Shown here: positions 26,743 to 42,111 of the stretch, piece by piece
Numbering within the stretch: the first letter of the stretch is position 1
How the letters are laid out: each line of letters begins with the position of its first letter
DNA from: Candidatus Omnitrophota bacterium
GTDB taxonomy: Bacteria; Omnitrophota; Gorgyraeia; Gygaellales; Profunditerraquicolaceae
Direction: 5' to 3'
DNA: 64,000 nt
NCBI GenBank assembly: GCA_041650835.1
Contig: JBAZKL010000002.1
Coordinates: 602,435 to 666,434 of the forward strand
Notes under the pieces: model-generated
What the model saw: only the letters and a program-made list of their open reading frames with translations
Databases searched by the model: none
Told to the model about the DNA's origin: nothing
Program-made: the position numbers and the translations under genes

Positions 26743-27639
26743 TTAGAAATTCTTGATCTCCTGATTGACATACGAGCCTCGCGATAGCGGTTCAAGTATC
26801 TGGCTGAGGAAGTAATTAAGGTTGGCAATGAATTTCTTCGGGACAAAGATTATATCTTCCGACACAAGAGAAATATTCTGATGAGCATCGCCCCTGAGTA
26901 CCTTGTTGAGCGTGATACGTTTGACCTCGGGCTTTTCCAAGCCTCCGCGGATAATGACAATACTGGAGGCCACCGCGTCCTTGGTCAACCCGCCTGCTAA
27001 GGTAATAGCTTCAACGATCGTTTTAGCGCCGGTGAGAGAATAAACACCCGGCCGGTAGATCTCCCCGAGTACCAGCACTCTTTGGCCGCCGATCTTCTTG
27101 ATCGATATGGAAACCTCCGGATACTTGACAAATTCTTTTAACCGCTCGGTCAGGAGCGCGTCGAGCTCTGTAAGCGTCAACCCTTGCGCCTCTACTTCAC
27201 CGATCAAAGGGAACGAGATCATGCCGTCAGGGCGCACAACCGCTTCCTGGTCCAGGTCCTGGTTCTGCCAGACAGAAATATGCAGGACGTCGTCCTCTCC
27301 AATGGTATATTCCTGAACAGGCTTTCTTTTAACGCTTAAAACCTTAGCTTTACTCTCAGGCGCCGCCGGCGTTACTTCAGGAGCTGTTAAAGCGGAAGCG
27401 GACTGCTTTTGCTCCGGAATAACCTCACTCAAAGCTTCTTCTTTTTGGTTCAAAAGGTCCAATGCTTTCTTAAACTCACCTTGAGCTTCAGGGAACTTAT
27501 CCTGTTGATAATACAGATTACCCTTGAGATAATATTCACGCGCCTGCTCTTGAATATGCTCATCCTGCCCGTAAAGGCCAGGATGAGCCATCCCGGAAAT
27601 TAGTAGAACAAATACCGTTCTCCTGACACAATTAAACAT
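26743..27639 (-). CDS. wza: Wza-type outer-membrane polysaccharide export protein (Poly_export plus SLBB)
   Basis: YTIGEDDVLHISVWQNQDL...PDGMISFPLIGEV is the Poly_export signature, and a signal peptide is present. Confidence 0.8.
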   Translation of the reverse strand: MFNCVRRTVFVLLISGMAHPGLYGQDEHIQEQAREYYLKGNLYYQQDKFPEAQGEFKKALDLLNQKEEALSEVIPEQKQSASALTAPEVTPAAPESKAKVLSVKRKPVQEYTIGEDDVLHISVWQNQDLDQEAVVRPDGMISFPLIGEVEAQGLTLTELDALLTERLKEFVKYPEVSISIKKIGGQRVLVLGEIYRPGVYSLTGAKTIVEAITLAGGLTKDAVASSIVIIRGGLEKPEVKRITLNKVLRGDAHQNISLVSEDIIFVPKKFIANLNYFLSQILEPLSRGSYVNQEIKNF

Positions 27640-27644
27640 AGATA

Positions 27645-29612
27645 TTAGTTTTTGCCGTTTGCCGGTTCTAAGATCACTTCTATCTTTCTTTTTAAATCCT
27701 CAGCATCCTGCTTATCTTTAGAGAAAATATCCGTAGATTCACTCGCGTAAGGGCTGGAACCCAACTTATCCTGCAGAAGAGCGTTAATACGCACCGCGGA
27801 GGCAAGGTCATCAATGGTTTTTTTCTGAAGGCTCTTGGTTATCGTTAATTCTTCCTGTAATTTCTCGGAGCGCACCCGTAAACCGGCGATTTCCTGGCGG
27901 AGCGAACCAAGCTCCCGGTTTTTCTGCTTCAATTCCGATTCTTTATCATTCAAAAGCTGGTTCAATTGAGTGATTTGAGACCGCAGGCTGTTATATAACA
28001 AATTCACTTCATCCACATGCGCCTGTTGTTTGGCTAACTCTTCCTGAGTAGAAGCCTTTGATGCCTGGATCGCGGCAAGACTATTCTCCAAAGACCTTTT
28101 CTCTTCTTCTTTACGCGATATCTGCTGGCTTAAATAATCAAGATTCTTTTGCAAAGAAAGGCTTATTTCCTCTTTCTTGGAGAGCGCTAATTGGGCATCG
28201 CTTAACTGCGACTGTAACGAAATCTTCTGAGTTTCCAGGTCCCGCACTTTATCTTTATTATCCTGCGTTATTTTCAGGTTATTCTCCAATTCCGCGATCT
28301 TATTCTGCAGAGAAAGCATTTTGTCTTTTGATAAGGATAATTCGGTTTTCGCTTTGTCAAGTTCCAACTCCTTACGGACCATGATATCCGCAAGCTGCCG
28401 GGCATCTCCCGTCGATTCCTCAATTGCCGACGATAGTCCGGCATTGCCGGTTTTATTCTGCCGCAGGCGTTCCAGCGAAGAGGATAATCGTTCTTTTTCA
28501 GCGTTGAGCTTGGCGATAATGGAATCCTGGTTGCGGATCTCCTCCTGTGCCTGGCGCAAAGACTCCTCCGACACGCTCTTTACTGATTCCCAATCCCTGA
28601 CCCGCCGCACCGACTGCTTACTGCCGGTCAATTCGTCATCGACCGTCCCCAGGCGCGCCTTTAGATCCGCGACATCACTCTTCAGACGCGCGCTTTCCGC
28701 TTTTTGAGAATCTAATTCCTGCCGCTTCTTCGACAAGTCATCTGAAAGCAGGGACAACTGGCTTTTAAGGTTACGATTAGCCGCCTCCAATGAACTGATG
28801 GAATCCTGATATTGCCTCGACTGTTTTTCCTGGGTGAATTTCGCGGAATTCAACTGTGACAGCTCCGCCTGAAGAGAACTGATCTGGCTCCTCTTTTGGC
28901 TCAATTCTGAATTTAACTGGGCGATATTTTCTTCCAATGATTTGAGCGGCCCGCTCTGGCGGGAGACCGTCTGCTGAAATTCGCTGATCTTAGACTGAAG
29001 GGAAACCTTTTCAAGCCCCAGATCCTTGACCCTTTTCGAAAGCTCTTTATTGTTTGCCGCCGCCGCTTGGGTCTGGCCCCTCAGTTCTTTTAATTCAGCT
29101 TTAGCCTTGGCCAATTCCTCTTCTTTCACCTGGCTGTTGGAGGATAATTTCTCTATTTTCTCCCTTAAGGGGAGTATCTGCATCTTATCCGCGTGCAATA
29201 ACTGCCCTTTTATATTCTTAAGTTCTTCGGTCACCCGGACAAATTCCTTGGTCGTGTTCGCTAAACGATTAGCCATGCCGGAATTACTTTCCTGCAGCGT
29301 GATCCGTTCTTTGTTGACCGCGGCCAGTTCCCGGCTTAACTGGTCTATCGTGGACTGCGCGTTGGTCACTGATTTCCGGATCGCCTCCACGTGCGCGAGC
29401 TCTTTTAACGTCTTTTCTTTTTCTTCAAGGGACATTTGTAATTCCGCAGCCCTGCTCTCAACCTGCTGAGTATAACCCTGCAACTCTTCTTTTTCCTGAT
29501 AGAGTTGGGAACTTAGATCATGGGCGTTCTGCAGCTTTGTGTAAACCGCAAACGCCGCGTAACCCGCGATAACAACCGCCGTAATTATTCCGATCAAACG
29601 AATACGTTTCAT
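27645..29612 (-). CDS. Membrane-anchored long coiled-coil protein
   Basis: An N-terminal TM helix is followed by about 600 aa of heptad-rich, Q/E/L/K-rich sequence with no enzymatic motif. Confidence 0.55.
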   Translation of the reverse strand: MKRIRLIGIITAVVIAGYAAFAVYTKLQNAHDLSSQLYQEKEELQGYTQQVESRAAELQMSLEEKEKTLKELAHVEAIRKSVTNAQSTIDQLSRELAAVNKERITLQESNSGMANRLANTTKEFVRVTEELKNIKGQLLHADKMQILPLREKIEKLSSNSQVKEEELAKAKAELKELRGQTQAAAANNKELSKRVKDLGLEKVSLQSKISEFQQTVSRQSGPLKSLEENIAQLNSELSQKRSQISSLQAELSQLNSAKFTQEKQSRQYQDSISSLEAANRNLKSQLSLLSDDLSKKRQELDSQKAESARLKSDVADLKARLGTVDDELTGSKQSVRRVRDWESVKSVSEESLRQAQEEIRNQDSIIAKLNAEKERLSSSLERLRQNKTGNAGLSSAIEESTGDARQLADIMVRKELELDKAKTELSLSKDKMLSLQNKIAELENNLKITQDNKDKVRDLETQKISLQSQLSDAQLALSKKEEISLSLQKNLDYLSQQISRKEEEKRSLENSLAAIQASKASTQEELAKQQAHVDEVNLLYNSLRSQITQLNQLLNDKESELKQKNRELGSLRQEIAGLRVRSEKLQEELTITKSLQKKTIDDLASAVRINALLQDKLGSSPYASESTDIFSKDKQDAEDLKRKIEVILEPANGKN

Positions 29613-29619
29613 TTTTAGT

Positions 29620-30705
29620 TTAATTATTTAAACATTCATCGACATAAAGCATCGAATTATCCGCCAAGTTTACCTGCTTGGGTTCTTTTAATTCTTTCCC
29701 ATAGGCGTCAACGATGATATTGATCGTCGGCCGAAGCGGCAGTTCAGGATTCTCCCTGATCACTAAACCGATCTCTTTAGTGTTAAGCCTGACCAGAGTC
29801 CCCATAGGAAATACCCCGATGCGCTCGATCAAAAGCTTAATGACTTTATGGTCAAAACATGACTTATTCTTTAAAATCGTCTTTATCGTTTCCAAAGGGC
29901 TGAATTTCGCGCGGTACGGCCGTTTATGGATCATCGCTTCATAAACATCGACTAATCCGACAATGCGCGCATATTCACCGATCTGCTCATCCTTAAGGCC
30001 GGCAGGATACCCTGAGCCGTCCATACGTTCATGTTCCTGGCGCACAACATCGAAGACCCGTTGGCTGAACGGGCCTCCTGACTGCTGCAGTATCTCAATT
30101 CCCGATAACGGGTGTTCTTTAACACGTTTGCTTTCTTCCTGAGATAAACAATCCGGCTTATTGATGACAGCCAAACATTTCACCATACCCAGGTCATGCA
30201 GCAAAGAGGCAACGCCCAATTCAATTACCCCGGGTTGATCAAAACGCAGCGCTATCCCCAGCTCAAGGGAAATAACGCACACATTGACCGTATGATAATA
30301 AAAATAATCCTGAACTTGAGGATAATCGATCAAAGCGCAGCGCAATAGATTCTTGCTGCCCCCTTGCAGTAAACCAACCGCTTTCTCGACCAACGGGGTG
30401 AGGCCGGCAAGAAATCCTTCTTCATATTTTAAATCGGGATTATACAATACGCGGGCTGCCGCTACAAGCTGGTCATACAACTCCACGGCCTTGGCGCCGT
30501 TAATAGAATTCAATTCTTTATGGACAGCCGCGGAAATATTGATCTTATGCGAATGAGAAGCTTGATTTTGACAGGAAGGTTCTTCACGGCCTTGCGGATG
30601 AGGGCCTCGAGCGCCTCCAAGGGGGTCCTGGCCTAACCCTAATTCAGCATCAAGGTCCTTCTTGGGCTCTTTAAGTTTTTTAAAGATATCTGATATTCTA
30701 AGCAT
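29620..30705 (-). CDS. HD-GYP domain phosphohydrolase (probable c-di-GMP phosphodiesterase)
   Basis: HDLGM and HERMDGSGYP match the HD and GYP motifs. Confidence 0.8.
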   Translation of the reverse strand: MLRISDIFKKLKEPKKDLDAELGLGQDPLGGARGPHPQGREEPSCQNQASHSHKINISAAVHKELNSINGAKAVELYDQLVAAARVLYNPDLKYEEGFLAGLTPLVEKAVGLLQGGSKNLLRCALIDYPQVQDYFYYHTVNVCVISLELGIALRFDQPGVIELGVASLLHDLGMVKCLAVINKPDCLSQEESKRVKEHPLSGIEILQQSGGPFSQRVFDVVRQEHERMDGSGYPAGLKDEQIGEYARIVGLVDVYEAMIHKRPYRAKFSPLETIKTILKNKSCFDHKVIKLLIERIGVFPMGTLVRLNTKEIGLVIRENPELPLRPTINIIVDAYGKELKEPKQVNLADNSMLYVDECLNN

Positions 30706-31540
30706 TCGTTTTGTCTACCGGGAGTTGATTGCTGAAATTCGAGGCTTCGAGGTCATCATTAATCTTGGTAATTGTTTTCTTCTCGATAACGCCCATTTCA
30801 CTGCCAAAACCAACCAATAATGCCAGATCGCAAATATTATTGATCCGCCGCGGTATGCCCCCGGAACAAAGGAATATTTCTTTATACGCGTCTTCTTCAA
30901 AGATCTGCTTTATTGCTCCCGCGATATTTAAACGGTGCAGGATATATTCTTTGACTTCCTGCTCGCTTAATGCCTTCAAATGGAAACGCACCGCCATGCG
31001 CTGGCTCAACTGAGGTAAATTCGATACCGCGTAATTGAGCTCCGGCTGGCCTAACAAAATAAGCGTCAAAAGAAAAGCGTTATCAAGTTGAAAATTCAAT
31101 AAAAGCCGCAATTCCTCGAATATCTCTTTGCTCTCGATAGCCTGGGCTTCATCGATCATGATCACGCTATGCTTGCCCATACTATGGTTTGAATACAGGA
31201 TCTTATGCAGGCAATGAAAAAGGTCGATCTTGGTCGCCAACTCTTCTCCCCCCAGCTGATGGATGATCTCACGGATGAATTCCAGACCGGACAGCCTCGG
31301 GTTAAGGATAAAAACCGACTGGTATAAATGCTCCTGTTGTAATTCCTGCCAGAGTATACGGTTCAAAAGGGTCTTCCCGCTGCCGTATTCTCCGGTAATT
31401 AAACCCGCCCCCTTACGTTCGCGCACCACATACAGCATACGCGCCAAAGCCTCTTTATGCTGCTGGGAATAATACACGAACCGCGGGTCAGGAGTATTCT
31501 CAAAGGGTTTCTCTTTTAACCCCCAATATGCTTCATACAT
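30698..31540 (-). CDS. ExeA/GspA/MshM-like AAA+ ATPase
   Basis: Walker A is GEYGSGKT and Walker B is VIMIDEAQ. The size and layout match the ExeA family. Confidence 0.75.
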   Translation of the reverse strand: MYEAYWGLKEKPFENTPDPRFVYYSQQHKEALARMLYVVRERKGAGLITGEYGSGKTLLNRILWQELQQEHLYQSVFILNPRLSGLEFIREIIHQLGGEELATKIDLFHCLHKILYSNHSMGKHSVIMIDEAQAIESKEIFEELRLLLNFQLDNAFLLTLILLGQPELNYAVSNLPQLSQRMAVRFHLKALSEQEVKEYILHRLNIAGAIKQIFEEDAYKEIFLCSGGIPRRINNICDLALLVGFGSEMGVIEKKTITKINDDLEASNFSNQLPVDKTNA

Positions 31541-31543
31541 AGT

Positions 31544-32128
31544 TTAGTTCCCGCTGACCGGGATGCCTTTTTTGCTGATGCTGACAAACGAATAATCTGT
31601 TTTGGTCTTTTCGTCGATCTGATAGCTCAAGACCCCGCGCATACCCTGCATATCCGGGGACATTTCACCGCGCCAGAAACAAACTCCTGTTTTCTCGGAA
31701 GTCTGCATAGTCTCCCAGACCACCTGATTTTCATCCTGGACCGTCAAAGTATAATTGGTGGAAGGAAATCCCTTTTTCCCGAAATTCATGAAAGAAACCT
31801 GGCTGTTCTTAAAGGAAACCGTTTCTTTTTCTTTCTTACCAGCACCGGTAAGCGGAGATAACTCGATAAGCCATTCGGTATTGTTCAATTCACCGCGCTT
31901 TTTCTCAGCCATCGCCTTTTGGTTCCTGTCAGCCGCTTCCTTGGCTTTATCAACTTTCTTTTCCACGGCTTTTTTGGCTGCGGGAGCAGCTTTTACTGCA
32001 GCAGCCGAAGACTCAACCTGAGGCGCAGCATCATCGGCCTTTTTCTTATTCCCGAACCAGGCCTGCGCGTCATTCATATAAATAAACATAAAACTTAAAA
32101 CCACCGTCACTGCTAACCCTTTTTTCAT
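31544..32128 (-). CDS. Secreted protein of unknown function with an Ala/Lys-rich low-complexity region
   Basis: A signal peptide is followed by an AAPQVESSAAAVKAAPAAKKAVEKKVDKAKE linker and a C-terminal domain. Confidence 0.5.
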   Translation of the reverse strand: MKKGLAVTVVLSFMFIYMNDAQAWFGNKKKADDAAPQVESSAAAVKAAPAAKKAVEKKVDKAKEAADRNQKAMAEKKRGELNNTEWLIELSPLTGAGKKEKETVSFKNSQVSFMNFGKKGFPSTNYTLTVQDENQVVWETMQTSEKTGVCFWRGEMSPDMQGMRGVLSYQIDEKTKTDYSFVSISKKGIPVSGN

Positions 32129-32150
32129 TTCTTCCTCCTTTAATGAAAGA

Positions 32151-33137
32151 TTAATTCATGGGCTTTTTACCTTCCCATGTCTGCCATGTTAAAATATACT
32201 TCTTGACCCAGTCGACATCTTTATCGCTGCCTTTGGTTAAACTTAAATATTTCCTGAAATGCTCTATTGCCTTCGGACGATTAACCAGGTATTCCGAATA
32301 AATGTAGCCGATATTATAATGAGACGAGGCATCTTCGGGATTTAATTCCGTTGATTTTTCGAATTCCGCGATCGCGCGCGAGAATTCCTTATTTTTGGTA
32401 TAGAAAACACCCAGGTTATAATGCATCAGCGCTGTTTCTTTTATCAAGACCTTATTTTCCCGCGCGATCTCAGCGATACGCGCCGGCAGAGCTTCCGCTT
32501 TTTTCTCAAGTGAACGGTTCTTGATGAGCGCTTCCTCATACCTGCGCTTGAATTCTTTTACCTGGCGGCGGTAGACTTCGATCTGCGCGTCACTATCGAG
32601 CTTACGCTCCTCATAACGCTTGAGTTGAGCTTCAATACCCCCGTATTTCCTCTGTAGATCTTTTTTATCATTTTGTAACCGGCCGATCTCTTTTCTTGTC
32701 TCAGGGACAACCTTATATTCAACCTCAAGTTTATCAACAGCGCTCTCCAGAGATTGTTTTTCCTGCGCCAGCAGGGTTACCCGGTCTTCCAGGTCTTTCA
32801 CGCCTTTTTTTAAAGCGGCATTTTCTTCTTCTAAGACCCTGGATGCCTCTGCCGACTGGGACTTATTCGTGTCATATGCTGATTGCAGCTTCATATTTTC
32901 TTCCTGCAATTGCTTGATCTTCACGTCTACCTCTAAATATTTCGCTTTATACTCAAGAAGATTCTTCGACTGCGCCAGGACATTATCCCGGTCAGCGACA
33001 ACTTTTTCGTATTCTTTTTTCAGCTTATCGTATTCTGTTTTAAGGTTATCCTGCGCGTAAACCCGCGGTATGAAACCGATGACCATGGCCACAATAAATA
33101 AGGTTTTTATTTTCATAGGTAAGGGATTATGCTCCAT
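32151..33137 (-). CDS. Secreted coiled-coil protein with C-terminal TPR repeats. It is a paralog of the C-terminus of the 35153-38230 protein.
   Basis: It has a signal peptide and coiled coil. The C-terminus HYNLGVFY...SHYNIGYIYSE...KAIEHFRKYLSL matches the C-terminus of the 1025-aa protein. Confidence 0.6.
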   Translation of the reverse strand: MEHNPLPMKIKTLFIVAMVIGFIPRVYAQDNLKTEYDKLKKEYEKVVADRDNVLAQSKNLLEYKAKYLEVDVKIKQLQEENMKLQSAYDTNKSQSAEASRVLEEENAALKKGVKDLEDRVTLLAQEKQSLESAVDKLEVEYKVVPETRKEIGRLQNDKKDLQRKYGGIEAQLKRYEERKLDSDAQIEVYRRQVKEFKRRYEEALIKNRSLEKKAEALPARIAEIARENKVLIKETALMHYNLGVFYTKNKEFSRAIAEFEKSTELNPEDASSHYNIGYIYSEYLVNRPKAIEHFRKYLSLTKGSDKDVDWVKKYILTWQTWEGKKPMN

Positions 33138-33138
33138 G

Positions 33139-34932
33139 TTAAAAATTCTTGACCGGTTTTAATACCGGCAAACGATCCATATCCTGTTTTACCGGTTGAT
33201 AATTCTGGTACGCCTTCAACTCTACCGGTGTATTTTCCTCGGAAAAATCCTGGTATTTCTGGTACTCTTTATCCAAGGTATGGCCAAAATCACGGTCATA
33301 ACCGGTAACAAGTTCATCGCCTTCCACGACATGAGGGGTCAATAAGATCACCAATTCCGCCCGCACCTTCTTATTGGTTTTCGTCTTAAAAGCCTCACCG
33401 ATGAACGGGATCTTGCTTAAAAACGGCGTGCCGCTGGAATCAAGGGTCTTTTCTTCTTTACTTAAACCGCCGATCAAGATACTGGAACCGTCCTTGACCA
33501 TAACGATCGTTTCCGCGGTCGATGTGTCGATTATCGGGATCTTATTCTTACTGGAAGTTTCCAGGAATGAGATAACGCTTGAGATCTCCGGTTTTATTTT
33601 AACGGTAACGAAACCATCATCATTGATCGTAGGAGTGACCATCATTTGTATACCGACATCAACATAGGTGACTGCTTCCGATACGGTCGTGCTTGTCTGC
33701 GTTTGAGTAGTTGTCGTCGTTATATAGGCCTGCCGCTCGCCGACATGGATCTTGGCTTCCTGATTGTTGACCACGGCCAGCTTCGGGTTGGAAAGTATGC
33801 GCGTTTCTCCTAAAGTCTGCAAATAATGGATAATGACGTCAAAATCATTCTTGCCGACAACGCCCAAATGGATCTCTTCGGTCGAGGTTTTCGGAGTCGA
33901 GGAGGAAAAATCAGTTGTCGTCCCGGAAAAGGGGTACGCACCGACATATCCGGTATCCTCAACGACCTCCTTGCGGGAACGCCAGGTATTGCTCGTTGCC
34001 GTCGTAGACGGGCCGACTGAACTCAAAGGAGTCGATCCAAGATACGTAGTCCCCCATCTCTTTCCGAGGTTAAACAAGCCCTCCCATTCAACGCCGGAAC
34101 CGACGGAATCGGTCAGTTTGACCTGGATGATCTTTGCGTCAATAAGTATCTGCTTGGTCTTTTTATCCAGGCTCTGTATTAAACGGCTGATATCCTCCAT
34201 GCGCTCAGGCAGGGTTTGCACGATAACCTGGTTTGTCCGCTCATCAGCTTTAATAGAGCCTAATTTCTTTACATCGATTTGAGGCTTTAATTGCTCTTCA
34301 ATGTCCTTGGCGCGGGCGTATTTCAGGTCAAAGACCATAATAACATTCTTTTTCTCCATCGCCTGCAAGGTGGCCTCCATGCTCTTGACACGCTCCGCGG
34401 TATCCATAACCAGGATAACCCCGGAATCCTGGTCCAGGAGTATCTTACCTATCTCGCTCTTAAGCGTGTTCAAAAGATTATACGCCTGTTCGGGGATCGC
34501 GTATTTTAGATTAAAGACGCGGGTGACCCTGGTATCAATAAAATTCTTGCCGTAGCGGGCCTTATATTCATTCTCGGTCATTACATTATAAATATCGCCT
34601 TTTTTCTCATACGCCAGGTTATTACTGCGCAAGATAATGTCAAAAACATCCTTGGCAGGCACATTATCGACCATAAGCGATGTCCGGCCGGAAACTTCTT
34701 TTGTAGGGATGATATTCAAACTCGCTTTTGTGGCGATATATTTCAATGCTTCGATTATTTCCATGTCCCGCAGGTCTAAAGAGATCGTTACCTTGGGAAA
34801 ATCATCGTTTATGGCAGCTGCTTCCTTTTGAAAAGGGAGCTTATCCGCGCGCTGTAACCCCTGCGCGTAAGAATTCATTATCCCGCAAAAAACGGGAATA
34901 ATCAATAAAGAATACACCTTAAATAATTTCAT
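33139..34932 (-). CDS. Secretin (GspD/PilQ/MshL family)
   Basis: Secretin_N repeats are followed by the C-terminal secretin domain ...TAETIVMVKDGSSILIGGL...PFLSKIPFIGEAF...LVILLTPHVV. Confidence 0.85.
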   Translation of the reverse strand: MKLFKVYSLLIIPVFCGIMNSYAQGLQRADKLPFQKEAAAINDDFPKVTISLDLRDMEIIEALKYIATKASLNIIPTKEVSGRTSLMVDNVPAKDVFDIILRSNNLAYEKKGDIYNVMTENEYKARYGKNFIDTRVTRVFNLKYAIPEQAYNLLNTLKSEIGKILLDQDSGVILVMDTAERVKSMEATLQAMEKKNVIMVFDLKYARAKDIEEQLKPQIDVKKLGSIKADERTNQVIVQTLPERMEDISRLIQSLDKKTKQILIDAKIIQVKLTDSVGSGVEWEGLFNLGKRWGTTYLGSTPLSSVGPSTTATSNTWRSRKEVVEDTGYVGAYPFSGTTTDFSSSTPKTSTEEIHLGVVGKNDFDVIIHYLQTLGETRILSNPKLAVVNNQEAKIHVGERQAYITTTTTQTQTSTTVSEAVTYVDVGIQMMVTPTINDDGFVTVKIKPEISSVISFLETSSKNKIPIIDTSTAETIVMVKDGSSILIGGLSKEEKTLDSSGTPFLSKIPFIGEAFKTKTNKKVRAELVILLTPHVVEGDELVTGYDRDFGHTLDKEYQKYQDFSEENTPVELKAYQNYQPVKQDMDRLPVLKPVKNF

Positions 34933-34935
34933 ATC

Positions 34936-35163
34936 TTATATGCCTAAGAGGCGCTTACGGATCAACATAAGCGAATAGCCTTCTTTGGAAAGTGCAATGA
35001 TCTGTTTAACGCGTTTATGAGCCAGGAGGCGTTCGTAATAACGCACATTACCTTTCTTAAAGGCCAGGCTCAACAGCCCCGCATCGCAATAACGGTTTAT
35101 CGTCTGTGAAGATATACCGTATAACTGTGATAACTCTTTTACCGTGATAAATTTATCTGGCAT
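34936..35163 (-). CDS. Small MerR/excisionase-type HTH DNA-binding protein. It is a paralog of the 41632-41871 protein.
   Basis: The 75-aa protein reads ITVKELSQLYGISSQTINRYCDAGLL...KKGNVRYY...EGYSL, close to the other small HTH protein. Confidence 0.65.
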   Translation of the reverse strand: MPDKFITVKELSQLYGISSQTINRYCDAGLLSLAFKKGNVRYYERLLAHKRVKQIIALSKEGYSLMLIRKRLLGI

Positions 35164-38100
35164 TTTTTAGTTCCTGATCCGCGGTCTCCCACGTAAGCAC
35201 GAACCTTCTGACCTGTTCGGCTTCGGGGTCATTGGGCGCTAACGCTAAATATTTCCTGAAATGGACGATCGCCTTCTTACGGTCATTTAATTGCTCGCTG
35301 AAGATAACGCCTAAATTATAATGGCTCTCAGCGTCATCCGGTTTTAATTCCAAGACTTTCTGGAATTCCTTGACCGCCTTATCATATTCCTGCTTCTGGG
35401 CATACATGACCCCCAGGTTATACCGTAACACGGTATTTTCCTGAGGCAATTCAGCGTACCGGTTGGTCAGTGTCTCATGCCTGTCCTTGGCCTCTTCGGT
35501 GATCTTGAAACGCTGCGTTAACTGGTCATAATTATTTTTCAAATTCTGATAATCCTCCATTAATTCCTTATATTGCTTTTCCACCTCTTCTTTATTCTTG
35601 ACCCGCTGTTCATAATCCTGGAGCTTGCGGTTATATTCTTTTGTTTTCTCAAGTAATTCGTTTTTCGAAGCCTCCAAGTCAGCCACTTTCTTAGTCATTG
35701 CGGGAGGCGGCATTCCGCCCATCTTTTCTTTATCTTTTTCTAACCGGGTGAACTGATTTTGTAAATCATTGACCTGTTCGGAAACAGCCACGTATTGATT
35801 TTTCAAGAAAGTATTTTGCTCAAGCAGCTTCTTATTTTCATCCGTTAAAAGATTCTTTTGAGCTTCCAATTCTTTAAGCTGGGAGAGATTCTGTTTTTGC
35901 TGGTTCAAGAGAGTGCTTTTTTCCTGCACGAGCTGATAAGAGAGGTCCTGAGAACTGCGCAGATCAGACTGGACTTTATTAAGCGAATCGGTAAGTGAAC
36001 GCGTATCCGCTTCTTGGAGGGATTTATATTCCCTGAACTTGTCATTAAGCTGCGCCCACTCGCCCTCTTTATGCGCTTTCACCTGCGCGATCTCGGCATC
36101 AAGGAGCGCCCTATCCTGCTCCTTATTGGTTTTTAACTTTGTGATCTGATCAAAAAGCCCGTCCCGCCCCCGTTTAAGCTCATCACATTCCTGCCGAAGC
36201 TGGGCCTTCTCTTTTTCATTCTGGGATATTTGCGCCAGCAATTGCTCGGTCTTTTGCTGGTAACTTTGGGCTTGGGCCGCTGAACCTGTTTTGAGATTTT
36301 CCGCGTCCGCAAGCCTGACCATGGCGCGCGCTAACTGTTCGGAGATCCTGGTGCGCTCCTCAAGGATAGTCAGGTTTTTCTGCATACAATCCTGATACTG
36401 CTCTTCTAAAACCGCGTTCGCGCTCTCTAACGCTTTGGTCTTAGCGCTCAACACATTCTCCTGGCTCTGATAAACCGCTTTTTCCTGGATCAATTGCCCG
36501 GAAAGCTCCTGCGCGACCTTCAGGTCCTTTTGCAGCTTACTTATCTGTTGCGCAAAAGTATTATCGCTCTGGGCTTCAGAGAGAGAAGCTTCTTTTTCCC
36601 TGCTTTCTTTGAGCTGCGCCGATAGGACAGTAATGCTGTTTTTAAGCTCATCGGCCTGTTTCTGGGCGGTTAAACGCTCCTTTTCCAACTGTTCGGATCT
36701 ATTGCGCAGCTGCGCTAATTCCTGCGATGAAATATTTTTCTGTTTACTCGTAAGGGCTTCCTGCCGCGAGAGATTGCGCTCCGCTTCAAGATGAACCAGC
36801 TTCTGGCGTAACTGCGCGATATCCCGGTCAGACCCCAGTTGCTTCTTTAACTCCTCAGCCTGCGCCGCTATCTGGTCCCGTTCAGATTCAACCTTAGCTA
36901 ACTTTGCGCGTAACTGATCCAGATCCTTGGGCGAAGACAGCTGTTTCTTTAACGCCGCCCCTTCATCCCGCAGATGGTCGCGCTCTTCCTCCAATTTCAT
37001 CACCTTGTTACGCAACACGGAAACTTCTTTTTCCGAACCCAGCTGTTTCTTTAAAACTTCAACCTGCTTCTGTAAAACATTACGGTCTTCTTCTATTGCC
37101 GCGAATTTAGAGCGCACCCGCGCGATATCATCCTCAGAGCCTATCTGCGATCTCACCGTTTTAACTTCAGACTGCAAAGAATTACGTTCTTCTTCTAATT
37201 GAGCGAATTTCTCCCGCAATTTTTCAATTTCTTTTTGAGAGACCAGTTGTTTTTTAAGGCCTGCTGCTTCCTGCTGAAGCCGGTTACGCTCTTCCTCAAG
37301 CTTTGAGGCCTTATCACGCAGAGCGTCAAAATCACGTTTCGCGATGATCTCTTTTTTCAGGCGCGCGGCATCTTCTTTTAACGTATCGCGTTCTTCTTCG
37401 ACGAGCGACAATCTTTCGCGAAGTTCTTTTGCTTCCTGAGAAGCAACCGACAGCTCCTTAAAACGGATATCTTTTTCTTTCAAATCATCCGTCAACTGCC
37501 GGCGCTCTTCCTGGAGTTCCGATACCCGCAGGCGTATCTGGTCAATATCTTTTTGCGCGACGATCTTCCTTTTCAGCGAATTTGACTCTTCCTGCAGCTG
37601 GACGCGCTCGGTCACCGCGTCTGCCAATTTATCACGCAGCGCCTCGAGTTCTTTCTGCGGCACCTGTTTTTTCTTAAGGGCGTTTAATTTAACATTAAGC
37701 TCATTGCGCTCTAATTCGACGCCGGTGAGCTTATCGCGCAGCTGTTCAATCTCTTTCCTTAACGACTGGACCTCCCCTCCTAAGACAACCCTGACTGTTT
37801 CAAGGTCACTGAGCTGCCCGGAAACATCCTTTTGTTTACTTTGAATAAATTCTTTCTCTTGGGTCAAGCGGTTGATCAATTCCTGAAAGCTCTTAAAATC
37901 ATCCTGAAGCTTGAATATCTTCTCATTCAAAGACCTGTTTTCCTGTTCCTTCAACCCGCAGAGCTCCTTAAGCTGTAAAAGCGCCTGCTGAGAGAGCAAA
38001 AGCTCATCCTTTGCTTTTTTAAGCAAATTAATAAGCTTGTCTTTGCTCAAGGCTGAATCAACGCTATCAAGATCGGCCGTGATCGCCTTGAGATCGTCTT

Positions 38101-38230
38101 TTGCCTGTGCCCGATCAAACGGTCCAGGAAAAAACGCCATAGCTGCGGATAATAGAATACTCATGCTCAAAAGCACTCCCCGTGAACCAGGTTTTCTCTT
38201 CATAGAGTCTCCGCTTAAAATTGAAATCAC
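35153..38230 (-). CDS. Giant secreted coiled-coil protein with about ten 33-aa tandem repeats and C-terminal TPR
   Basis: The 1025-aa ORF has a signal peptide and repeats of the pattern LRxKxxxLEEERNxLxxExxxLKKQLxSxKE. The C-terminal TPR is paralogous to the 32151-33137 protein. Confidence 0.65.
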   Translation of the reverse strand: MISILSGDSMKRKPGSRGVLLSMSILLSAAMAFFPGPFDRAQAKDDLKAITADLDSVDSALSKDKLINLLKKAKDELLLSQQALLQLKELCGLKEQENRSLNEKIFKLQDDFKSFQELINRLTQEKEFIQSKQKDVSGQLSDLETVRVVLGGEVQSLRKEIEQLRDKLTGVELERNELNVKLNALKKKQVPQKELEALRDKLADAVTERVQLQEESNSLKRKIVAQKDIDQIRLRVSELQEERRQLTDDLKEKDIRFKELSVASQEAKELRERLSLVEEERDTLKEDAARLKKEIIAKRDFDALRDKASKLEEERNRLQQEAAGLKKQLVSQKEIEKLREKFAQLEEERNSLQSEVKTVRSQIGSEDDIARVRSKFAAIEEDRNVLQKQVEVLKKQLGSEKEVSVLRNKVMKLEEERDHLRDEGAALKKQLSSPKDLDQLRAKLAKVESERDQIAAQAEELKKQLGSDRDIAQLRQKLVHLEAERNLSRQEALTSKQKNISSQELAQLRNRSEQLEKERLTAQKQADELKNSITVLSAQLKESREKEASLSEAQSDNTFAQQISKLQKDLKVAQELSGQLIQEKAVYQSQENVLSAKTKALESANAVLEEQYQDCMQKNLTILEERTRISEQLARAMVRLADAENLKTGSAAQAQSYQQKTEQLLAQISQNEKEKAQLRQECDELKRGRDGLFDQITKLKTNKEQDRALLDAEIAQVKAHKEGEWAQLNDKFREYKSLQEADTRSLTDSLNKVQSDLRSSQDLSYQLVQEKSTLLNQQKQNLSQLKELEAQKNLLTDENKKLLEQNTFLKNQYVAVSEQVNDLQNQFTRLEKDKEKMGGMPPPAMTKKVADLEASKNELLEKTKEYNRKLQDYEQRVKNKEEVEKQYKELMEDYQNLKNNYDQLTQRFKITEEAKDRHETLTNRYAELPQENTVLRYNLGVMYAQKQEYDKAVKEFQKVLELKPDDAESHYNLGVIFSEQLNDRKKAIVHFRKYLALAPNDPEAEQVRRFVLTWETADQELKNAR
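36730..37740 (-). repeat. Intragenic tandem repeat with a period of about 99 bp (about 10 diverged units) that encodes the 33-aa coiled-coil repeats
   Basis: The unit recurs about every 99-102 bp, with the cagctgtttctttaa/ccagttgttttttaa motif at about 36838, 36941, 37040, 37242 and 37343. Confidence 0.6.
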
Positions 38231-40044
38231 CGTGAAAGCGATTTAGGCCCTTTCATTTCCAATCTTTGTTTCTCAACCGGCATAAAAACCGGAGCCGCCG
38301 GTTCAACAAGTTCTTCTTTCTTCAATGCGCGGTAATCTTTCGGCGGCTTGACTGCGCCACCGCCGACTTCCTTCAAAACAGGGCCGGCTACCAAAACTTC
38401 TCCGGAGATCATTTTTGGCGTCAGAATGATCAATAACTCCGTCTTTTCTTTTGACTTCGATTTTACACTGAAGAAGCGGCCAAGTAAAGGAATATCTCCC
38501 AATACCGGAGTCTGCTGCGCGGTAGAACTTTCCGTTTCTTTACGCAGCCCCCCGATAATAACGGTTGAACCGTCTTTAACCATAACGGTGGTTTCCGCAA
38601 GCGACGTATCGATGATAGGGATCTGATTTTTAGTCGGAGTAATCAGCATCTCCAGGACGCTGTTGATCTCAGCTTTTATTTTCAGGGTGATGAAGCCTTC
38701 ATCGTTTATGATCGGAACGACGGAAATGATAACGCCGACGTCGACAAAGGTCACCTGTTCGGAAACAGTATTGGTAGTCTGTCCGGTTGTCGTCGTTGTC
38801 GTCACATAGGCTTCTTTCTGTCCGACATGGATCTTCGCTTCCTGATTATTAATTATGGCGAGTTTTGGATTGGAAATAACCTTGGTCTTTCCTTTTGTCT
38901 GCAAATACTTAATGACCGTATCAAAATCATGCTTACCGACAACCCCCAGGTGCATTTCTTCGGTCCCGATCTTCGAACTGCTGGAAGAATAATTGGTTGT
39001 CGTACCGCTAAAAGGATATGAACCTACGTTTCCCACGGTATCCCATACCGAACTGCGTGAACGCCAGGTATCGGTTGACGCCTGCACCGACGCAAACGGC
39101 GTAGACCCCAGGTAACTCATGCCGAATTGCCGGCCTAAATCAAATAATCCTTCCCACTGTATTCCTTCGCTGGTATCATCCGATAATTTCACATTGACGA
39201 TATTGATATCAACAATGATCTCCTTTGTCTTCTGGTCAAGGGCTTTGATCAGCTTTTCGATCTGATCCATACGCTTCGGAAGAGTCTGCACGATTAATTG
39301 ATTACCCCGCTCATCCGCCTTGATCAAGCCGACCTTCTTGGAATCAAGCTGATTCTTCAAGGCTTCTTCCACATCCTTAGCCTTGGCGTAATTCAATTTG
39401 AAGACTTTAACGGTATTTTTTTCCTCAAAATCCTTCAACACCTTATCCATAATTTCGATGCGAGCGGCGGAATCGATCACTAATACATTACCGGATTCCG
39501 GATCGACTAATACCCTGCCGATCTCGCTTTTAAGCATATCCAGCAAGCTGAAAGCCTGTTCCGGAACGATGTAATTCAAATAAAAGACCTTTACCTGGCG
39601 GATATCGGCAAAATTCTTCCCGTAAAGCACCCGGTATTCTTCCTGAGTCATGACATTATAGATCTCCCCCTGCTTATCGTACGCGAGATTATTACTGCGA
39701 AGCATAAGATCGAAGACATCCTGGATAGGGGCATTCTCGACCATAAGCGTTACCCTGCCTATGACGGCCTTTGTCGTAACAATATTCATTCCGGCCTTCA
39801 TAGACAAAAACTTTAACGCATCAACAACATCGATATTTCTTAAATCAAGGGAGATCTTCCCCGCGAGGACAGTTACCGGAGGAGCGACCATGGGTTGCAG
39901 GAGCGTCGCTTGAGCTAATTGTATTAATTTATTATCGGCTGAGCCCGCAGGCTCAGCATGAAGGCCGGGAGTAACGCAAAGGCTTACGCAGGCAAAGGAA
40001 GGGATGAAAACAAGGTATTTTAAGAACTTTTTCTTTAATATCAT
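38227..40044 (-). CDS. Secretin (second paralog)
   Basis: LAETTVMVKDGSTVIIGGL...PVLGDIPLLGRFF...LLIILTPKMI is the secretin signature, preceded by N-terminal Secretin_N-type domains. Confidence 0.85.
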   Translation of the reverse strand: MILKKKFLKYLVFIPSFACVSLCVTPGLHAEPAGSADNKLIQLAQATLLQPMVAPPVTVLAGKISLDLRNIDVVDALKFLSMKAGMNIVTTKAVIGRVTLMVENAPIQDVFDLMLRSNNLAYDKQGEIYNVMTQEEYRVLYGKNFADIRQVKVFYLNYIVPEQAFSLLDMLKSEIGRVLVDPESGNVLVIDSAARIEIMDKVLKDFEEKNTVKVFKLNYAKAKDVEEALKNQLDSKKVGLIKADERGNQLIVQTLPKRMDQIEKLIKALDQKTKEIIVDINIVNVKLSDDTSEGIQWEGLFDLGRQFGMSYLGSTPFASVQASTDTWRSRSSVWDTVGNVGSYPFSGTTTNYSSSSSKIGTEEMHLGVVGKHDFDTVIKYLQTKGKTKVISNPKLAIINNQEAKIHVGQKEAYVTTTTTTGQTTNTVSEQVTFVDVGVIISVVPIINDEGFITLKIKAEINSVLEMLITPTKNQIPIIDTSLAETTVMVKDGSTVIIGGLRKETESSTAQQTPVLGDIPLLGRFFSVKSKSKEKTELLIILTPKMISGEVLVAGPVLKEVGGGAVKPPKDYRALKKEELVEPAAPVFMPVEKQRLEMKGPKSLSR

Positions 40045-40637
40045 CGTAATTCGATCAATTCTTCTCCATAGCGCAAAATTATCTTATCTTTAAATACACT
40101 TTCTACTTTAAGATCTCCGATCATCTGCCCTTTTTTGACGAAAGAAGTGCGCGCGGACTTAACGTCTTCTATCATGATATCGGGATTATCCGACCAGGAG
40201 ATCCCGACGAGCCTTAAATTTTGCATTACTTCAGCCGCTTTAGAAGAAATGACCTCATTGACCGATGAAGATGAATTAAGCCCCATTTTGAATATATCCC
40301 TGCTTTGTGTTTTTCCTATATAATAGGCGAGATCTTTTAACCGGGGCGTCTCTTTTCTGACTTGTGCGTCTTTCACTAACTCAGGAGCCGCCCATTTTCC
40401 CGGGTTGATCTTCTTTATACCCTGGGAAAGGCTATACACAAAATAAACGGACAAGAGAATAACACATAATAAAAGAACAAGATTGATTACTTTAATATCG
40501 ACTTCATTCTGCTTTTTCTTGAAGAGCTTCAGTATATTTTCTTTGAGAGCAGAAAAAGCCGAACCCAATTGCTCCGGTGAAAAAACGCCTAAAATATTCG
40601 TTTTTACCGCCATAATGCCTTGCCGCAAGCCGCTCAA
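40041..40637 (-). CDS. GspC/PilP-like secretin-interacting protein
   Basis: A single TM helix is followed by a C-terminal beta-sandwich-like segment LRLVGISWS...FVKKGQMIGDLKVESVFKDKIILRYGEELIEL, which resembles the GspC HR and PilP C-domains. Confidence 0.5.
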   Translation of the reverse strand: MSGLRQGIMAVKTNILGVFSPEQLGSAFSALKENILKLFKKKQNEVDIKVINLVLLLCVILLSVYFVYSLSQGIKKINPGKWAAPELVKDAQVRKETPRLKDLAYYIGKTQSRDIFKMGLNSSSSVNEVISSKAAEVMQNLRLVGISWSDNPDIMIEDVKSARTSFVKKGQMIGDLKVESVFKDKIILRYGEELIELR

Positions 40638-41623
40638 TTGGCCTTTCCAGGCGGAGATCCGGCCTCAAGAAATTGAGGATATACCAGGATCTTTGCTTCA
40701 ACCTTTAATTTCTCCAGCCAAACATTCAACTCATCGTATTTCTTTATCATCTCTACCTGCTTAAAATACGAATCCCGCAGTTTCGGGAAATCCTCTTTAA
40801 GCGCAAGCCTCTTTTTCAAGATACGGATCACACCATACCCCTTATATACGGGGATAGGAGGATAGACGGTATTGACCTCTCGCTCGAGCATTTTATATAA
40901 ATCATCCTTGGGGATCTTCCACATATTAATAAGGAACTCAAGGGAAACGAACCCCGGATGCTTGGCGAATTTCGGGTCTTTCTTGGCTTCGGCATCCCAA
41001 AGAGCAGGATCGGCCATTTTAGCATAAAAAGCATCCGCGTCTTTTTTCTCGTCAAACTGTACCAGCTCCAGTTCCAGAGTATTGTATTCATTCAAGAACT
41101 CCTGGTAGGCTTCTTCCTCGGTGACTGCCGGCTTAAACGTCTCCAGGACCTGCTGGCGCAATTTTTCTAATTGTATCAAATGGCGCATTTGATTTTCAAA
41201 AAGCTCGGAATTCCCGCCGGTTTTCTCTTTGAGCCATTTATCGTATTCAGCTTTATCTTTTTGCCAATCGAAGGTTACCTTTTCGCTTTTAAGCGTCTTG
41301 GAGACTTCCTGTTCCACCTCTTCCCTGCTGACAGTGATATTACGGCGGAACGCTTCGTAAGAAAGAAGCAACTGCTCCCATGTCCTATCCTCAAACTCCA
41401 CTTCAGTCTGAGGAGGCTGCCCCCAGCGCGTCCCAAAAACACCGATCACTCTTTTAATAAAATAATAATTACCCGCGGTGACCTTAACGCCGTAACCGCT
41501 CAATTCCCCGGCAAATTCCTCCGGCTTCCCCTGGATTTGCTGGCAAAGGGCTTGCCTGCAATCATACATAGGCCCGGCGCACGCAAAGATTAAAATAAAA
41601 ATTATGTCGAGATACTTCCTCAT
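40634..41623 (-). CDS. Periplasmic or lipoprotein-like protein of unknown function
   Basis: It has a signal peptide with a possible lipobox cysteine and a helical soluble domain (SurA-N-like at best). Confidence 0.45.
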   Translation of the reverse strand: MRKYLDIIFILIFACAGPMYDCRQALCQQIQGKPEEFAGELSGYGVKVTAGNYYFIKRVIGVFGTRWGQPPQTEVEFEDRTWEQLLLSYEAFRRNITVSREEVEQEVSKTLKSEKVTFDWQKDKAEYDKWLKEKTGGNSELFENQMRHLIQLEKLRQQVLETFKPAVTEEEAYQEFLNEYNTLELELVQFDEKKDADAFYAKMADPALWDAEAKKDPKFAKHPGFVSLEFLINMWKIPKDDLYKMLEREVNTVYPPIPVYKGYGVIRILKKRLALKEDFPKLRDSYFKQVEMIKKYDELNVWLEKLKVEAKILVYPQFLEAGSPPGKAN

Positions 41624-41631
41624 AAAACCTT

Positions 41632-41871
41632 TTAAACTCCTATTAGCCTTTTTTTGATCAGGCGCAGCGAATAACCTTCACGCGACAGCCGGGTGATCAA
41701 AGCAATGCGCTGCTTCACCAACTTAGAATCATAAAAGCGTATATTCCCCTTTTTAAAAGCAAGCGGCAGCAAGCCAAAATCGGTATAATGATTTACCGTC
41801 TGGTAAGTCAAATGATACCTGTTCATGATCTCTTTCGCCGAAACTAATGTATTTTCGTCTGCCATACTCAC
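41632..41871 (-). CDS. Small MerR/excisionase-type HTH DNA-binding protein
   Basis: The 79-aa protein reads SAKEIMNRYHLTYQTVNHYTDFGLLPLAFKKGNIRFY...EGYSLRLIKKRLIGV. Confidence 0.65.
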   Translation of the reverse strand: MSMADENTLVSAKEIMNRYHLTYQTVNHYTDFGLLPLAFKKGNIRFYDSKLVKQRIALITRLSREGYSLRLIKKRLIGV

Positions 41872-41905
41872 CTATTCACGCGCATTTCACTTGTGATAAC
41901 CTTTG

Positions 41906-41949
41906 TATATATAAGACTTATTGTACCTACCATAAGTCTTATATATACT
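41906..41949. promoter_or_regulatory. 16-bp perfect inverted-repeat candidate operator
   Basis: The two arms, gtatatataagactta and taagtcttatatatac, are separated by a 12-nt spacer and overlap the predicted -10 element. Confidence 0.6.
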
Positions 41950-41970
41950 ACAGATTCCGGGCTTGTCAAT
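41940..41970 (-). promoter_or_regulatory. Sigma70-like promoter for the HTH-secretin operon
   Basis: On the minus strand the -35 is TTGACA (41964-41969), the spacer is 16-17 nt, and the -10 is TATATA/TATAAT-like (about 41942-41947). It lies about 70 nt upstream of the ATG. Confidence 0.55.
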
Positions 41971-42111
41971 AGTTTTTTTAATATTTTTTAGGGAGGCAGA
42001 TGTGAGCGGCTGCGGCACGCCATTGCCGGTCACCCATGACCGCAGCCCGGGTTTAAACCCGGGCTACGTGACATAAACGAGCATCATTGCAAAACGATCT
42101 TTTTAACAAGC

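Follow-up and report, generated by a model that had tools for sequence, protein, structure and literature searches.

In the secretion system of type II (T2SS), GspB binds the secretin's N0 domain and acts either with the ATPase GspA or with a pilotin, as described in a study of OutB (PMC9239104). GspB, GspC and PilP share the HR fold, and canonical GspA (ExeA) carries a transmembrane segment and a periplasmic PG_binding_1 domain (PMC9239104). Here we describe a locus from a Candidatus Omnitrophota bacterium that encodes two secretins, A and B, together with proteins that recall this arrangement. It lies at 26.7-42.0 kb of a 64,000-nucleotide stretch of contig JBAZKL010000002.1 (hereafter the window), and all of its genes are closely packed on the minus strand. 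The window also falls within a 354-kb contig in ENA (ERZ27247363 k141_1717945), and an NCBI metagenome-assembled genome encodes a protein identical to its 194-residue protein P194. We favour, with moderate confidence, the reading that this region specifies one half, outer-membrane and periplasmic, of a pseudopilus machine, related to the T2SS and to the mannose-sensitive haemagglutinin (MSHA) pilus system, which Omnitrophota would encode in separate pieces. At least one of the two secretins is most likely the outer-membrane part of this split machine, and not an orphan. The proposal of a split system follows from three observations: in relatives the secretin module is contiguous with a GspE-M operon, elsewhere that operon has no secretin gene, and one contig carries both pieces.

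The secretins resemble GspD in having an N0/STN domain followed by N domains. As with GspA and GspB (ExeA and ExeB), a predicted bitopic inner-membrane protein with a putative HR-like domain, here termed T198, is encoded directly upstream of the secretin, an ExeA-type P-loop ATPase gene overlaps the gene for the HR protein in most relatives, and in related loci the module stands in one operon with GspE-F-G-J-K-L-M. In contrast to GspA, the ATPase of the locus is predicted to be wholly cytoplasmic, with no transmembrane segment in a hydropathy scan and no PG_binding_1 match in Pfam, and in the window its gene is not paired with a gspB-like gene but adjoins one for an HD-GYP protein. The locus also departs from the T2SS in that the secretin is duplicated, scores under the GspD cut-off and is usually unlinked from GspE-M, and in its additional genes, which encode coiled-coil proteins with tetratricopeptide repeats (coiled-coil/TPR proteins), an exported protein of 194 residues (P194), the HD-GYP protein and an outer-membrane polysaccharide export (OPX) protein.

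The secretory genes of the Vibrio MSHA type IV pilus are ordered MshL-MshM-MshN-MshE-MshG. A related locus, L064, has a similar series, in which genes for a secretin, an ATPase of the ExeA type and a TPR protein come before those for an MshEN-domain ATPase and a GspF-like platform protein. Control by cyclic di-GMP (c-di-GMP) would be a further likeness. Unlike MshL, however, the secretins reach only 177 and 186 bits with the MshL model TIGR02519, against a cut-off of 250, and the pseudopilins match GspG, GspJ and GspK. The TPR protein differs in its long coiled coil, the GspE in an additional PilZ domain, and the locus as a whole in being split.

Synteny of the secretin module with type II secretion genes

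Secretin homologues, with 52-93% identity, were found at at least 79 loci in genomes representing GTDB species. Their host labels are mostly Omnitrophota, the rest being Planctomycetales/Planctomycetia, PVC group, Deltaproteobacteria, Margulisiibacteriota or just bacterium. The complete gene order was found again on other large contigs at 72%, 63% and 56% secretin identity, and runs histidine kinase, response regulator, helix-turn-helix (HTH) protein, SurA-like protein or ATPase, T198, secretin A, coiled-coil/TPR protein, HTH protein, secretin B, coiled-coil/TPR protein, P194, ATPase, HD-GYP, coiled coil and OPX. The 56%-identity locus (L006) lacks the kinase and regulator pair and the second HTH gene. 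The cassette of HTH, secretin and coiled-coil/TPR genes picked out in the initial annotation of the window is a recurrent one. Using profiles built from the window proteins we labelled 85 loci, which fall into two layouts, one with a lone secretin (HTH, ATPase, T198, secretin, coiled-coil/TPR, P194) and the double-secretin one of the window. The HTH gene is the first of the locus in 60 of the 85; the T198 gene lies directly upstream of the secretin in 67 loci, and in almost every locus the secretin gene is followed by one for a coiled-coil/TPR protein.

In L064 the module is linked to type II secretion genes in the order ATPase, T198, secretin, coiled-coil/TPR, GspE (with MshEN, T2SSE and PilZ domains), GspF, GspG, a pseudopilin, GspJ, GspK, PilM/N and GspM. 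A metagenome scan with a GspE alignment yielded L091, L092, L095 and L104, and at least three related loci join the module to a complete GspE-F-G-J-K-L-M set. L092 and L095 run from GspE through GspM into the ATPase and T198 genes; the secretin is next in L095, and the L092 stretch ends after T198. L104 runs from GspE through GspM (GspJ not detected) into T198 and the secretin, without an ATPase, and L091 has the same GspE through GspM series with an HTH and an ATPase gene at the locus end. A GspM gene also follows P194 in L044. The initial annotation had taken the secretins to work without a pilus-type partner, a view that is not supported, the module of ATPase, HR protein and secretin being found inside the GspE-M operons of L064 and L095 and, as far as T198, of L092.

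Neither a prepilin motif nor any homologue of GspE, F, G, J, K, L or M was found in the 64-kb window, which extends the earlier observation that pilins and GspE/F are missing from the locus. The GspE orthologue family is widespread in Omnitrophota. Its usual locus has a giant open reading frame (ORF), an F-type ATPase, a stand-alone MshEN protein, GspE and GspF; L087 and L089, in which the stretches are long enough, continue with GspG, a pseudopilin, GspJ, GspK, PilM/N and GspM. In both, the operon stops one small ORF past GspM, about where a secretin gene would be expected, and HMM checks of the L086, L087 and L089 GspE loci gave no matches to secretin, T198, ATPase, P194 or OPX. Contig ERZ1426844 (142,859 bp) bears both a GspE locus and a double-secretin/OPX locus. 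Together with the secretin-less GspE-M operons of the phylum, this comes close to the T2SS or type IV pilus (T4P) partner genes elsewhere that the initial annotation had named as the evidence that would speak against it.

Among the matches listed in the GspE metagenome scan, most were generic GspE with at most 58% identity, and the 1.62-Mb contig with L002 was not recovered. L086, which shares its sample with the window and gave the best tetranucleotide match (r = 0.92), was considered as the GspE locus of the window's own genome and rejected, as the distance between the NCBI accession numbers points to another metagenome-assembled genome. A second gene for an MshEN+T2SSE ATPase lies at the end of L086. 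Upstream of the GspE operon in L086, L087 and L089 (about 4500-9600 in each) there are always a set of F-type ATPase genes and the 3' end of an ORF that is giant (>3000 residues).

T198 has no Pfam match and reaches only E 0.008 with TIGR01713. A T198 profile built from 26 sequences has a single match in the PDB, 3OSS_C, the GspC HR domain bound to GspD N0-N1, with E 0.011. The alignment covers the conserved C-terminal 54 residues, and the HR assignment rests on this marginal match. It gives weak support to the initial description of T198 as GspC/PilP-like, and by analogy with GspB the HR domain is predicted to bind the secretin's N0 domain. The Walker A and B motifs are intact in 70 of 70 orthologues of the ATPase, and the window ATPase scores 227.6 bits with its best NCBIfam family, TIGR03015, against a cut-off of 324.5. 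Two ATPase paralogues can be distinguished: ATP-1, which pairs with T198, its gene in most loci overlapping that of T198 just upstream of the secretin, and ATP-2, which adjoins HD-GYP. T198 orthologues with an adjacent ATPase gene carry a conserved cytoplasmic motif, TPEKxLLxLIE, in their N-terminal 30 residues, which may be a docking site for the ATPase. The window keeps ATP-2 only, and there a SurA-like gene occupies the usual slot of ATP-1.

The two secretins of the window are 54% identical over 548 residues, the two HTH proteins are 49% identical, and the TPR ends of the two coiled-coil/TPR proteins are 47% identical (E 3e-30), in agreement with the duplication, and the paralogous TPR ends, proposed in the initial annotation. 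The secretins score 226 and 238 bits with the GspD model TIGR02517 (cut-off 351) and 231 and 239 bits with the PilQ model TIGR02515 (cut-off 284). Secretin B is equally close to PilQ and GspD in the PDB. Neither secretin has an AMIN domain in Pfam, and there are no pilMNOP genes near the locus. An AlphaFold2 (AF2) model of the secretin B monomer, of only moderate confidence (pLDDT 65.7), comprises N0 and two N domains, then a stretch of 88 residues modelled with low confidence (276-363), the secretin domain and a tail that is disordered; gene callers start this protein later, giving a version of 588 residues.

A neighbour-joining tree of 120 secretins contains three groups, the single-secretin clade, secretin A and secretin B. 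The L064 secretin falls inside the single-secretin clade. The secretin A clade, the members of which always come after T198, joins the single-secretin clade on one side of the root, and the secretin B sequences make up a monophyletic clade of their own that is confined to loci carrying OPX. The loci group similarly within the A and B clades, as expected if the duplication was old and vertically inherited.

We propose that the ancestral module would have comprised a MerR-like HTH protein, a GspA-like ATPase, T198, a GspD-like secretin, a coiled-coil/TPR protein and P194, and that its secretin and coiled-coil/TPR unit, with the HTH gene, would have been duplicated in tandem in the window. Module A, namely HTH1, the SurA-like chaperone, T198, secretin A and the long coiled-coil/TPR protein, most likely supplies the secretin for a GspE(MshEN+PilZ)-F-G-J-K-L-M set encoded elsewhere, which in typical Omnitrophota has as neighbours an F-type ATPase and the gene for a giant surface protein. 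Module B consists of HTH2, secretin B, a coiled-coil/TPR protein, P194, the ATPase paralogue, HD-GYP, an anchored coiled coil and a short OPX protein; it would be a diverged copy, most likely a second secretin outlet tied to polysaccharide-type cargo and c-di-GMP.

Several points weigh against a split T2SS. The GspE-M genes are known from related lineages and not from the genome of the window itself, and the partnership of unlinked loci rests on synteny in those other lineages. Both secretins fall under the curated GspD, PilQ and MshL cut-offs. T198 of the window lineage has neither the TPEKxLLxLIE motif nor an adjacent ATP-1, and as both have been lost module A may work differently there. To our knowledge, nothing known of the T2SS explains a strictly co-inherited OPX protein, a 655-residue anchored coiled coil or coiled-coil partners of 376-1628 residues. 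Tad systems, and possibly further pilus systems, are also present in Omnitrophota (PMC10066038), and either secretin may have a different partner.

Co-inheritance of secretin B and the OPX protein

Class-3 OPX proteins, exemplified by WzaB of the WzaB-WzpB-WzcB pathway of Myxococcus xanthus, have a layout that requires a separate outer-membrane pore (PMC12819527). The C-terminal Phe-Phe of WzaB binds the porin WzpB, and lipidation is required for WzaB to oligomerise (PMC12819527). The OPX protein of the locus has this Class-3 layout, being short (298 residues), with Poly_export and one SLBB domain and no outer-membrane-spanning helix (Wza_C domain). The C-terminus is conserved among its orthologues and has W, F or Y as its last residue, an aromatic end as in WzaB, and in the window a gene for a type 2a polysaccharide co-polymerase (PCP-2a) lies downstream. 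Unlike WzaB, it carries an N-terminal TPR, and its orthologues have no conserved lipobox. The locus also differs from the WzaB-WzpB-WzcB set in lacking a Wzp-type beta-barrel: none was found in the 64-kb window, where the secretins are the only outer-membrane channels. A 502-residue ORF at 14182-15690 was considered as a Wzp-like porin and rejected as a polytopic membrane protein.

A further difference is that the OPX gene is inherited with the secretin and coiled-coil genes and not with the PCP gene. Among secretin-B loci with at least 7 kb of downstream sequence (n=26), OPX, the anchored coiled coil and P194 are each present in all 26, HD-GYP in 25 and the PCP in 2; in the single-secretin loci (n=11), HD-GYP, the coiled coil, OPX and the PCP are each absent from all 11. 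In the window the OPX gene starts 5 nt after the end of the coiled-coil gene. The connection between secretin and OPX (wza) drawn in the initial annotation is thus upheld. The strict pairing of secretin B with OPX is real, and no account of it came up in the literature that we searched. Such strict co-inheritance makes a secretin-OPX conduit plausible, and a secretin-gated polysaccharide outlet is a plausible but unproven function for it. In L034, L037, L039 and L048, extra ORFs of 778-996 residues with an N-terminal OPX-like TPR and a long coiled coil lie between the coiled-coil and OPX genes; from their architecture these are another length-variable coiled-coil component of the locus.

The same annotation had described the locus as fused to an exopolysaccharide (EPS) export locus, and this part is not supported, as Wzc follows OPX in only those 2 of 26 loci and the other downstream genes are variable. 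OPX and PCP genes come after the secretins on the same strand in the window, L002 and L013, but L007, a 91%-identical relative, has different genes after OPX. Depending on the lineage these are PCP/Wzy genes, radical-SAM/PqqD genes, or PGI and a sigma factor. In the window 486 nt (26257-26742) separate the OPX and PCP genes, compared with 19 nt at the L002 junction; this gap holds no credible gene, its 132-residue ORF being without a family match, and no Rfam match. The Wzc-like PCP opens a Wzy/Wzx/glycosyltransferase cassette (about 3.5-24.2 kb), which, going by its distribution, is lineage-specific and outside the conserved machine.

Besides Wzy_C and Wzx, the wider glycan cassette (755-24211) encodes at least 8 methyltransferase-domain proteins, glycosyltransferases of the GT2 and GT4 families, two heptosyltransferases of family GT9, a DegT aminotransferase, and one protein each resembling PMT_2 and a kinase; we saw no gene in it for a priming phosphoglycosyl transferase. 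After OPX in the ERZ1426844 contig, L005, L010, L023, L051 and L053 there are radical-SAM/SPASM and PqqD genes, in the ERZ1426844 contig also ScmC-like and ShlB/POTRA genes. By its gene content the radical-SAM/SPASM and PqqD set is peptide-maturation-like, not a glycan cassette.

Secretin-dependent exopolymer secretion has a precedent, in that PilQ of filamentous cyanobacteria and GspD of M. xanthus have been reported as slime nozzles (PMC12475490). The locus shares with these the implication of a secretin in the release of a non-protein exopolymer, and differs in its OPX partner and dedicated secretin paralogue, neither of which is reported for the nozzles (PMC12475490). The nozzle secretins belong to complete T4P or T2SS, and for the locus the evidence is genomic. 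The initial proposal of an undescribed secretin-based polysaccharide export is thus not wholly new as a concept, and the secretin-OPX pair at its core is conserved. Our search of the literature on Omnitrophota (Omnitrophica) secretins returned nothing relevant to the locus; Seymour 2023 and two preprints mention type-4a pilus, Tad and T2SS-like genes, and not the twin-secretin locus.

XrtA/PEP-CTERM loci offer another comparison, as TIGR03015 and TIGR03027 are the best NCBIfam families for the ATPase and the OPX protein, respectively. Unlike genuine members, both proteins score under the curated cut-offs (OPX 125.6 bits against 180), and no exosortase family matched among the window ORFs scanned. 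We know of no XrtA/PEP-CTERM locus of which a secretin is a part.

Gene content and regulatory features

The features of the locus are listed in Table 1, for which domains were assigned by Pfam and NCBIfam searches of the window ORFs and topology by a hydropathy scan. The genes named in the initial annotation are all present where it placed them, as two tandem modules of HTH, secretin and coiled-coil/TPR genes, and its domain calls hold, including the two secretins, the ExeA-like ATPase, the HD-GYP protein and the anchored 655-residue coiled coil. Its 'periplasmic protein' of 329 residues does have an N-terminal hydrophobic segment, and the SurA_N/PpiC-like match is weak.

Table 1. Features of the twin-secretin locus and its immediate flanks (window coordinates)
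Feature	Coordinates	Strand	Evidence or remarks
PAS histidine kinase (692 aa) and REC-only response regulator (129 aa)	42262..44719	-	Pfam; upstream of locus
Promoter-like TTGACA and 21-nt inverted repeat	41905..41969	-	sequence reading and inverted-repeat search; just upstream of HTH1
HTH1, 79-aa MerR-type HTH protein, predicted cytoplasmic	41632..41871	-	MerR_1 E 3e-7; no hydrophobic segment
329-aa exported SurA_N/PpiC-like protein, candidate periplasmic chaperone	40634..41623	-	weak Rotamase_2 and SurA_N_3; N-terminal hydrophobic segment
T198 (198 aa), bitopic inner-membrane protein, GspC/GspB HR-like C-terminal domain	40041..40637	-	one transmembrane segment, residues 50-66; profile match
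Secretin A (605 aa)	38227..40044	-	Secretin E 5e-45, two Secretin_N, STN
1025-aa secreted coiled-coil protein, C-terminal TPR	35153..38230	-	TPR_1 E 1.5e-12, SMC-like coiled-coil matches, signal-peptide-like N-terminus
HTH2, 75-aa MerR-type HTH protein	34936..35163	-	MerR_1 E 4e-7, HTH_17
Secretin B (597 aa)	33139..34932	-	Secretin E 3e-46, two Secretin_N, STN
328-aa secreted coiled-coil protein, C-terminal TPR; candidate MshN/pilotin-like secretin partner	32151..33137	-	TPR_1 E 5e-9
P194, exported, helix and small 8-stranded beta-barrel	31544..32128	-	family found only in Omnitrophota
ExeA/GspA-like AAA ATPase (280 aa), predicted cytoplasmic, ATP-2 paralogue type	30698..31540	-	AAA_22 E 6e-21; TIGR03015 best NCBIfam family
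HD-GYP c-di-GMP phosphodiesterase-like protein (361 aa), without REC domain	29620..30705	-	HD_5 E 5e-25
655-aa coiled-coil protein, single N-terminal membrane anchor	27645..29612	-	coiled-coil families; hydrophobic segment at residues 7-23 only
Short OPX protein (298 aa): signal peptide, one TPR, Poly_export, one SLBB	26743..27639	-	Poly_export E 2e-24, SLBB_2 E 5e-11
Wzc-like PCP-2a tyrosine autokinase (640 aa)	24334..26256	-	Wzz, GNVR, AAA_31; TIGR01007 162 bits, above cut-off; two transmembrane segments

No hydrophobic segment was found in the HTH, ATPase and HD-GYP proteins. Hydrophobic N-termini that resemble signal peptides occur in both secretins, both coiled-coil/TPR proteins and the SurA-like protein, and P194 and OPX have shorter N-terminal hydrophobic stretches that are under the threshold of the scan. 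The two HTH proteins retain the MerR_1 HTH and lack a MerR effector domain. Orthologues of the 1025-residue coiled-coil/TPR protein span 376 to 1628 residues, and the 328-residue protein also matches, weakly, the TPR lipoproteins Tgl, PilW and GltE. The SurA-like orthologue in the single-secretin locus L052 has SurA_N and a cyclophilin peptidyl-prolyl isomerase domain (E 2e-54). P194 gave 151 matches, all Omnitrophota, and no sequence match in the PDB. Its fold search returned only generic 8-stranded barrels, with Cap15 the best; as P194 is exported, we regard this as fold-level similarity only and not as a sign of a Cap15-like cyclic-nucleotide binder. A relationship to GspL/PilN was also dismissed, the P194 profile having no match to the T2SS proteins of L064.

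The HD-GYP protein has LHDLG and QEHERMDGSGYP, and its HD and GYP motifs are intact. About 30 of 36 orthologues retain the HD motif and QEHERxDGSGYP; compared with the family motif HHExxDGxGYP, all orthologues have Glu in place of the first His. MshEN and PilZ domains are found in the GspE orthologues, which are encoded after a stand-alone MshEN protein. The HD-GYP enzyme would lower c-di-GMP, for which the partner GspE would have two receptor domains, MshEN and PilZ, and a c-di-GMP circuit shared between the two is a reasonable inference from these sequences. An Rfam scan of the whole window gave no matches, so no c-di-GMP riboswitch was found.

The 21-nt inverted repeat is 95% complementary with a 2-nt loop and lies about 30 nt upstream of HTH1. 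At the equivalent spot L007 has a 33-nt inverted repeat (2967-3034), in which AAGACT is changed to ATGAGT in both arms. The repeat might serve the small MerR-like proteins as an operator, or form a hairpin in the leader (5'-UTR). Between the response-regulator gene and HTH1 there are two GC-rich hairpins, at 42041-42068 and 42135-42186, the second followed by a T-run. As the hairpins resemble a terminator, the secretin locus is probably transcribed from a promoter of its own; scanning 24-43 kb for promoters and terminators gave no more than expected from shuffled sequence. Of 39 related loci, 14 have the histidine kinase and response regulator pair no further than 3.5 kb upstream.

Further along, the window contains an Mvh/Hdr-type cluster (46926-52188) with genes for a HycI protease, both the large and the small subunit of a NiFe hydrogenase, an MvhD-like protein and a flavoprotein resembling HdrA, as well as a TusA-like gene (46347-46571) and a methyl-accepting chemotaxis protein (MCP) gene (44992-46185). 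A 148-residue protein with PG_binding_1 is encoded at 63303-63749, >20 kb from the locus, and is probably unrelated to the ATPase without that domain.

Alternative explanations and implications

A new polysaccharide translocon in module B is a tentative possibility, and one that is compatible with module A serving a T2SS. The OPX ring would dock under secretin B, which would replace the Wzp-type beta-barrel of the Class-3 OPX pathway; the 655-residue anchored coiled coil, or the PCP where present, would bridge the periplasm, and HD-GYP would set c-di-GMP. The perfect pairing of secretin B with OPX and its absence from single-secretin loci argue for this, as do the 5-nt spacing, an OPX protein without Wza_C and a window without a Wzp-like barrel. 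On the other hand, PCP, Wzy and Wzx are rarely adjacent, their place being taken by radical-SAM/PqqD, PGI or sigma-factor genes. An OPX ring of 8-fold symmetry and a secretin ring of 12- to 15-fold symmetry would be mismatched, which also counts against such a translocon. The aromatic OPX C-terminus recalls the Phe-Phe of WzaB, but the missing lipobox does not fit a protein that must be lipidated to oligomerise (PMC12819527), and the reported slime nozzles lend the idea some weight (PMC12475490). Another suggestion is that both secretins are ordinary outlets of two pilus or pseudopilus systems encoded elsewhere, for example GspE-M and a PilB-type system, with OPX, HD-GYP and coiled coil as mere neighbours. 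Type-4a pili have been reported for almost all Omnitrophota, and Tad systems for many of them (PMC10066038), L086 ends in a second MshEN+T2SSE ATPase gene, and the secretins are equally similar to PilQ and GspD. We nevertheless think this unlikely, as a chance neighbourhood is hard to argue for genes that are tightly spaced and perfectly co-inherited over 26 diverged species, and AMIN domains and nearby pilMNOP genes are missing.

The model of the initial annotation in full, in which both modules form one autonomous, pilus-independent apparatus exporting the polysaccharide of the adjacent Wzc/Wzy/Wzx genes, appears highly improbable. A window without pilins or GspE/F, and OPX and PCP genes that follow the secretins on one strand in the window, L002 and L013, are in its favour. 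Against it, related loci hold the secretin module in complete T2SS operons, secretin-less GspE-M operons are widespread, one of them on the same contig as a double-secretin locus, and the EPS cassette is not conserved with the locus, differing after OPX even in L007. A last suggestion concerns the cargo and is compatible with a split T2SS: the secretins might export the giant surface proteins of Omnitrophota. In L061 (13813-19572), and also in L052, L038 and L071, the genes after the single-secretin module encode small exported proteins, then a SurA_N+cyclophilin chaperone, and an ORF with Kre9_KNH repeats of at least 1919 residues, usually running past the end of the stretch, and the secretin module may sit upstream of the giant genes of the phylum. 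GspE loci lie directly downstream of giant ORFs of >3000 residues, and a preprint notes T2SS-like loci beside giant genes (10.1101/2023.11.21.568195). With no giant ORF within 10 kb in the window and the other double-secretin loci, we regard this cargo as doubtful.

Where a split T2SS/MSHA-like machine is concerned, the locus carries a caution for annotation, in that the label of an 'orphan' secretin drawn from a single window is unsafe when partner genes can sit elsewhere on the chromosome. Omnitrophota are ultra-small, uncultured and thought to be predators or epibionts, and surface machines are central to that lifestyle. Their widespread gene set resembling the T2SS or the 'type-4a pilus' usually comes without a secretin, and the twin-secretin locus most likely supplies the secretin and its assembly factors. 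The pairing of secretin B with OPX bears on how the very common Class-3 OPX pathways that have no porin exit the outer membrane, and on whether secretins conduct polysaccharides, as has been proposed for slime nozzles. If the coupling is physical, the locus would be a compact, testable example of secretin-OPX export; if the translocon proves true, it would be the first dedicated one joining a secretin to OPX and would offer a genetic handle on the disputed passage of polysaccharides through secretins.

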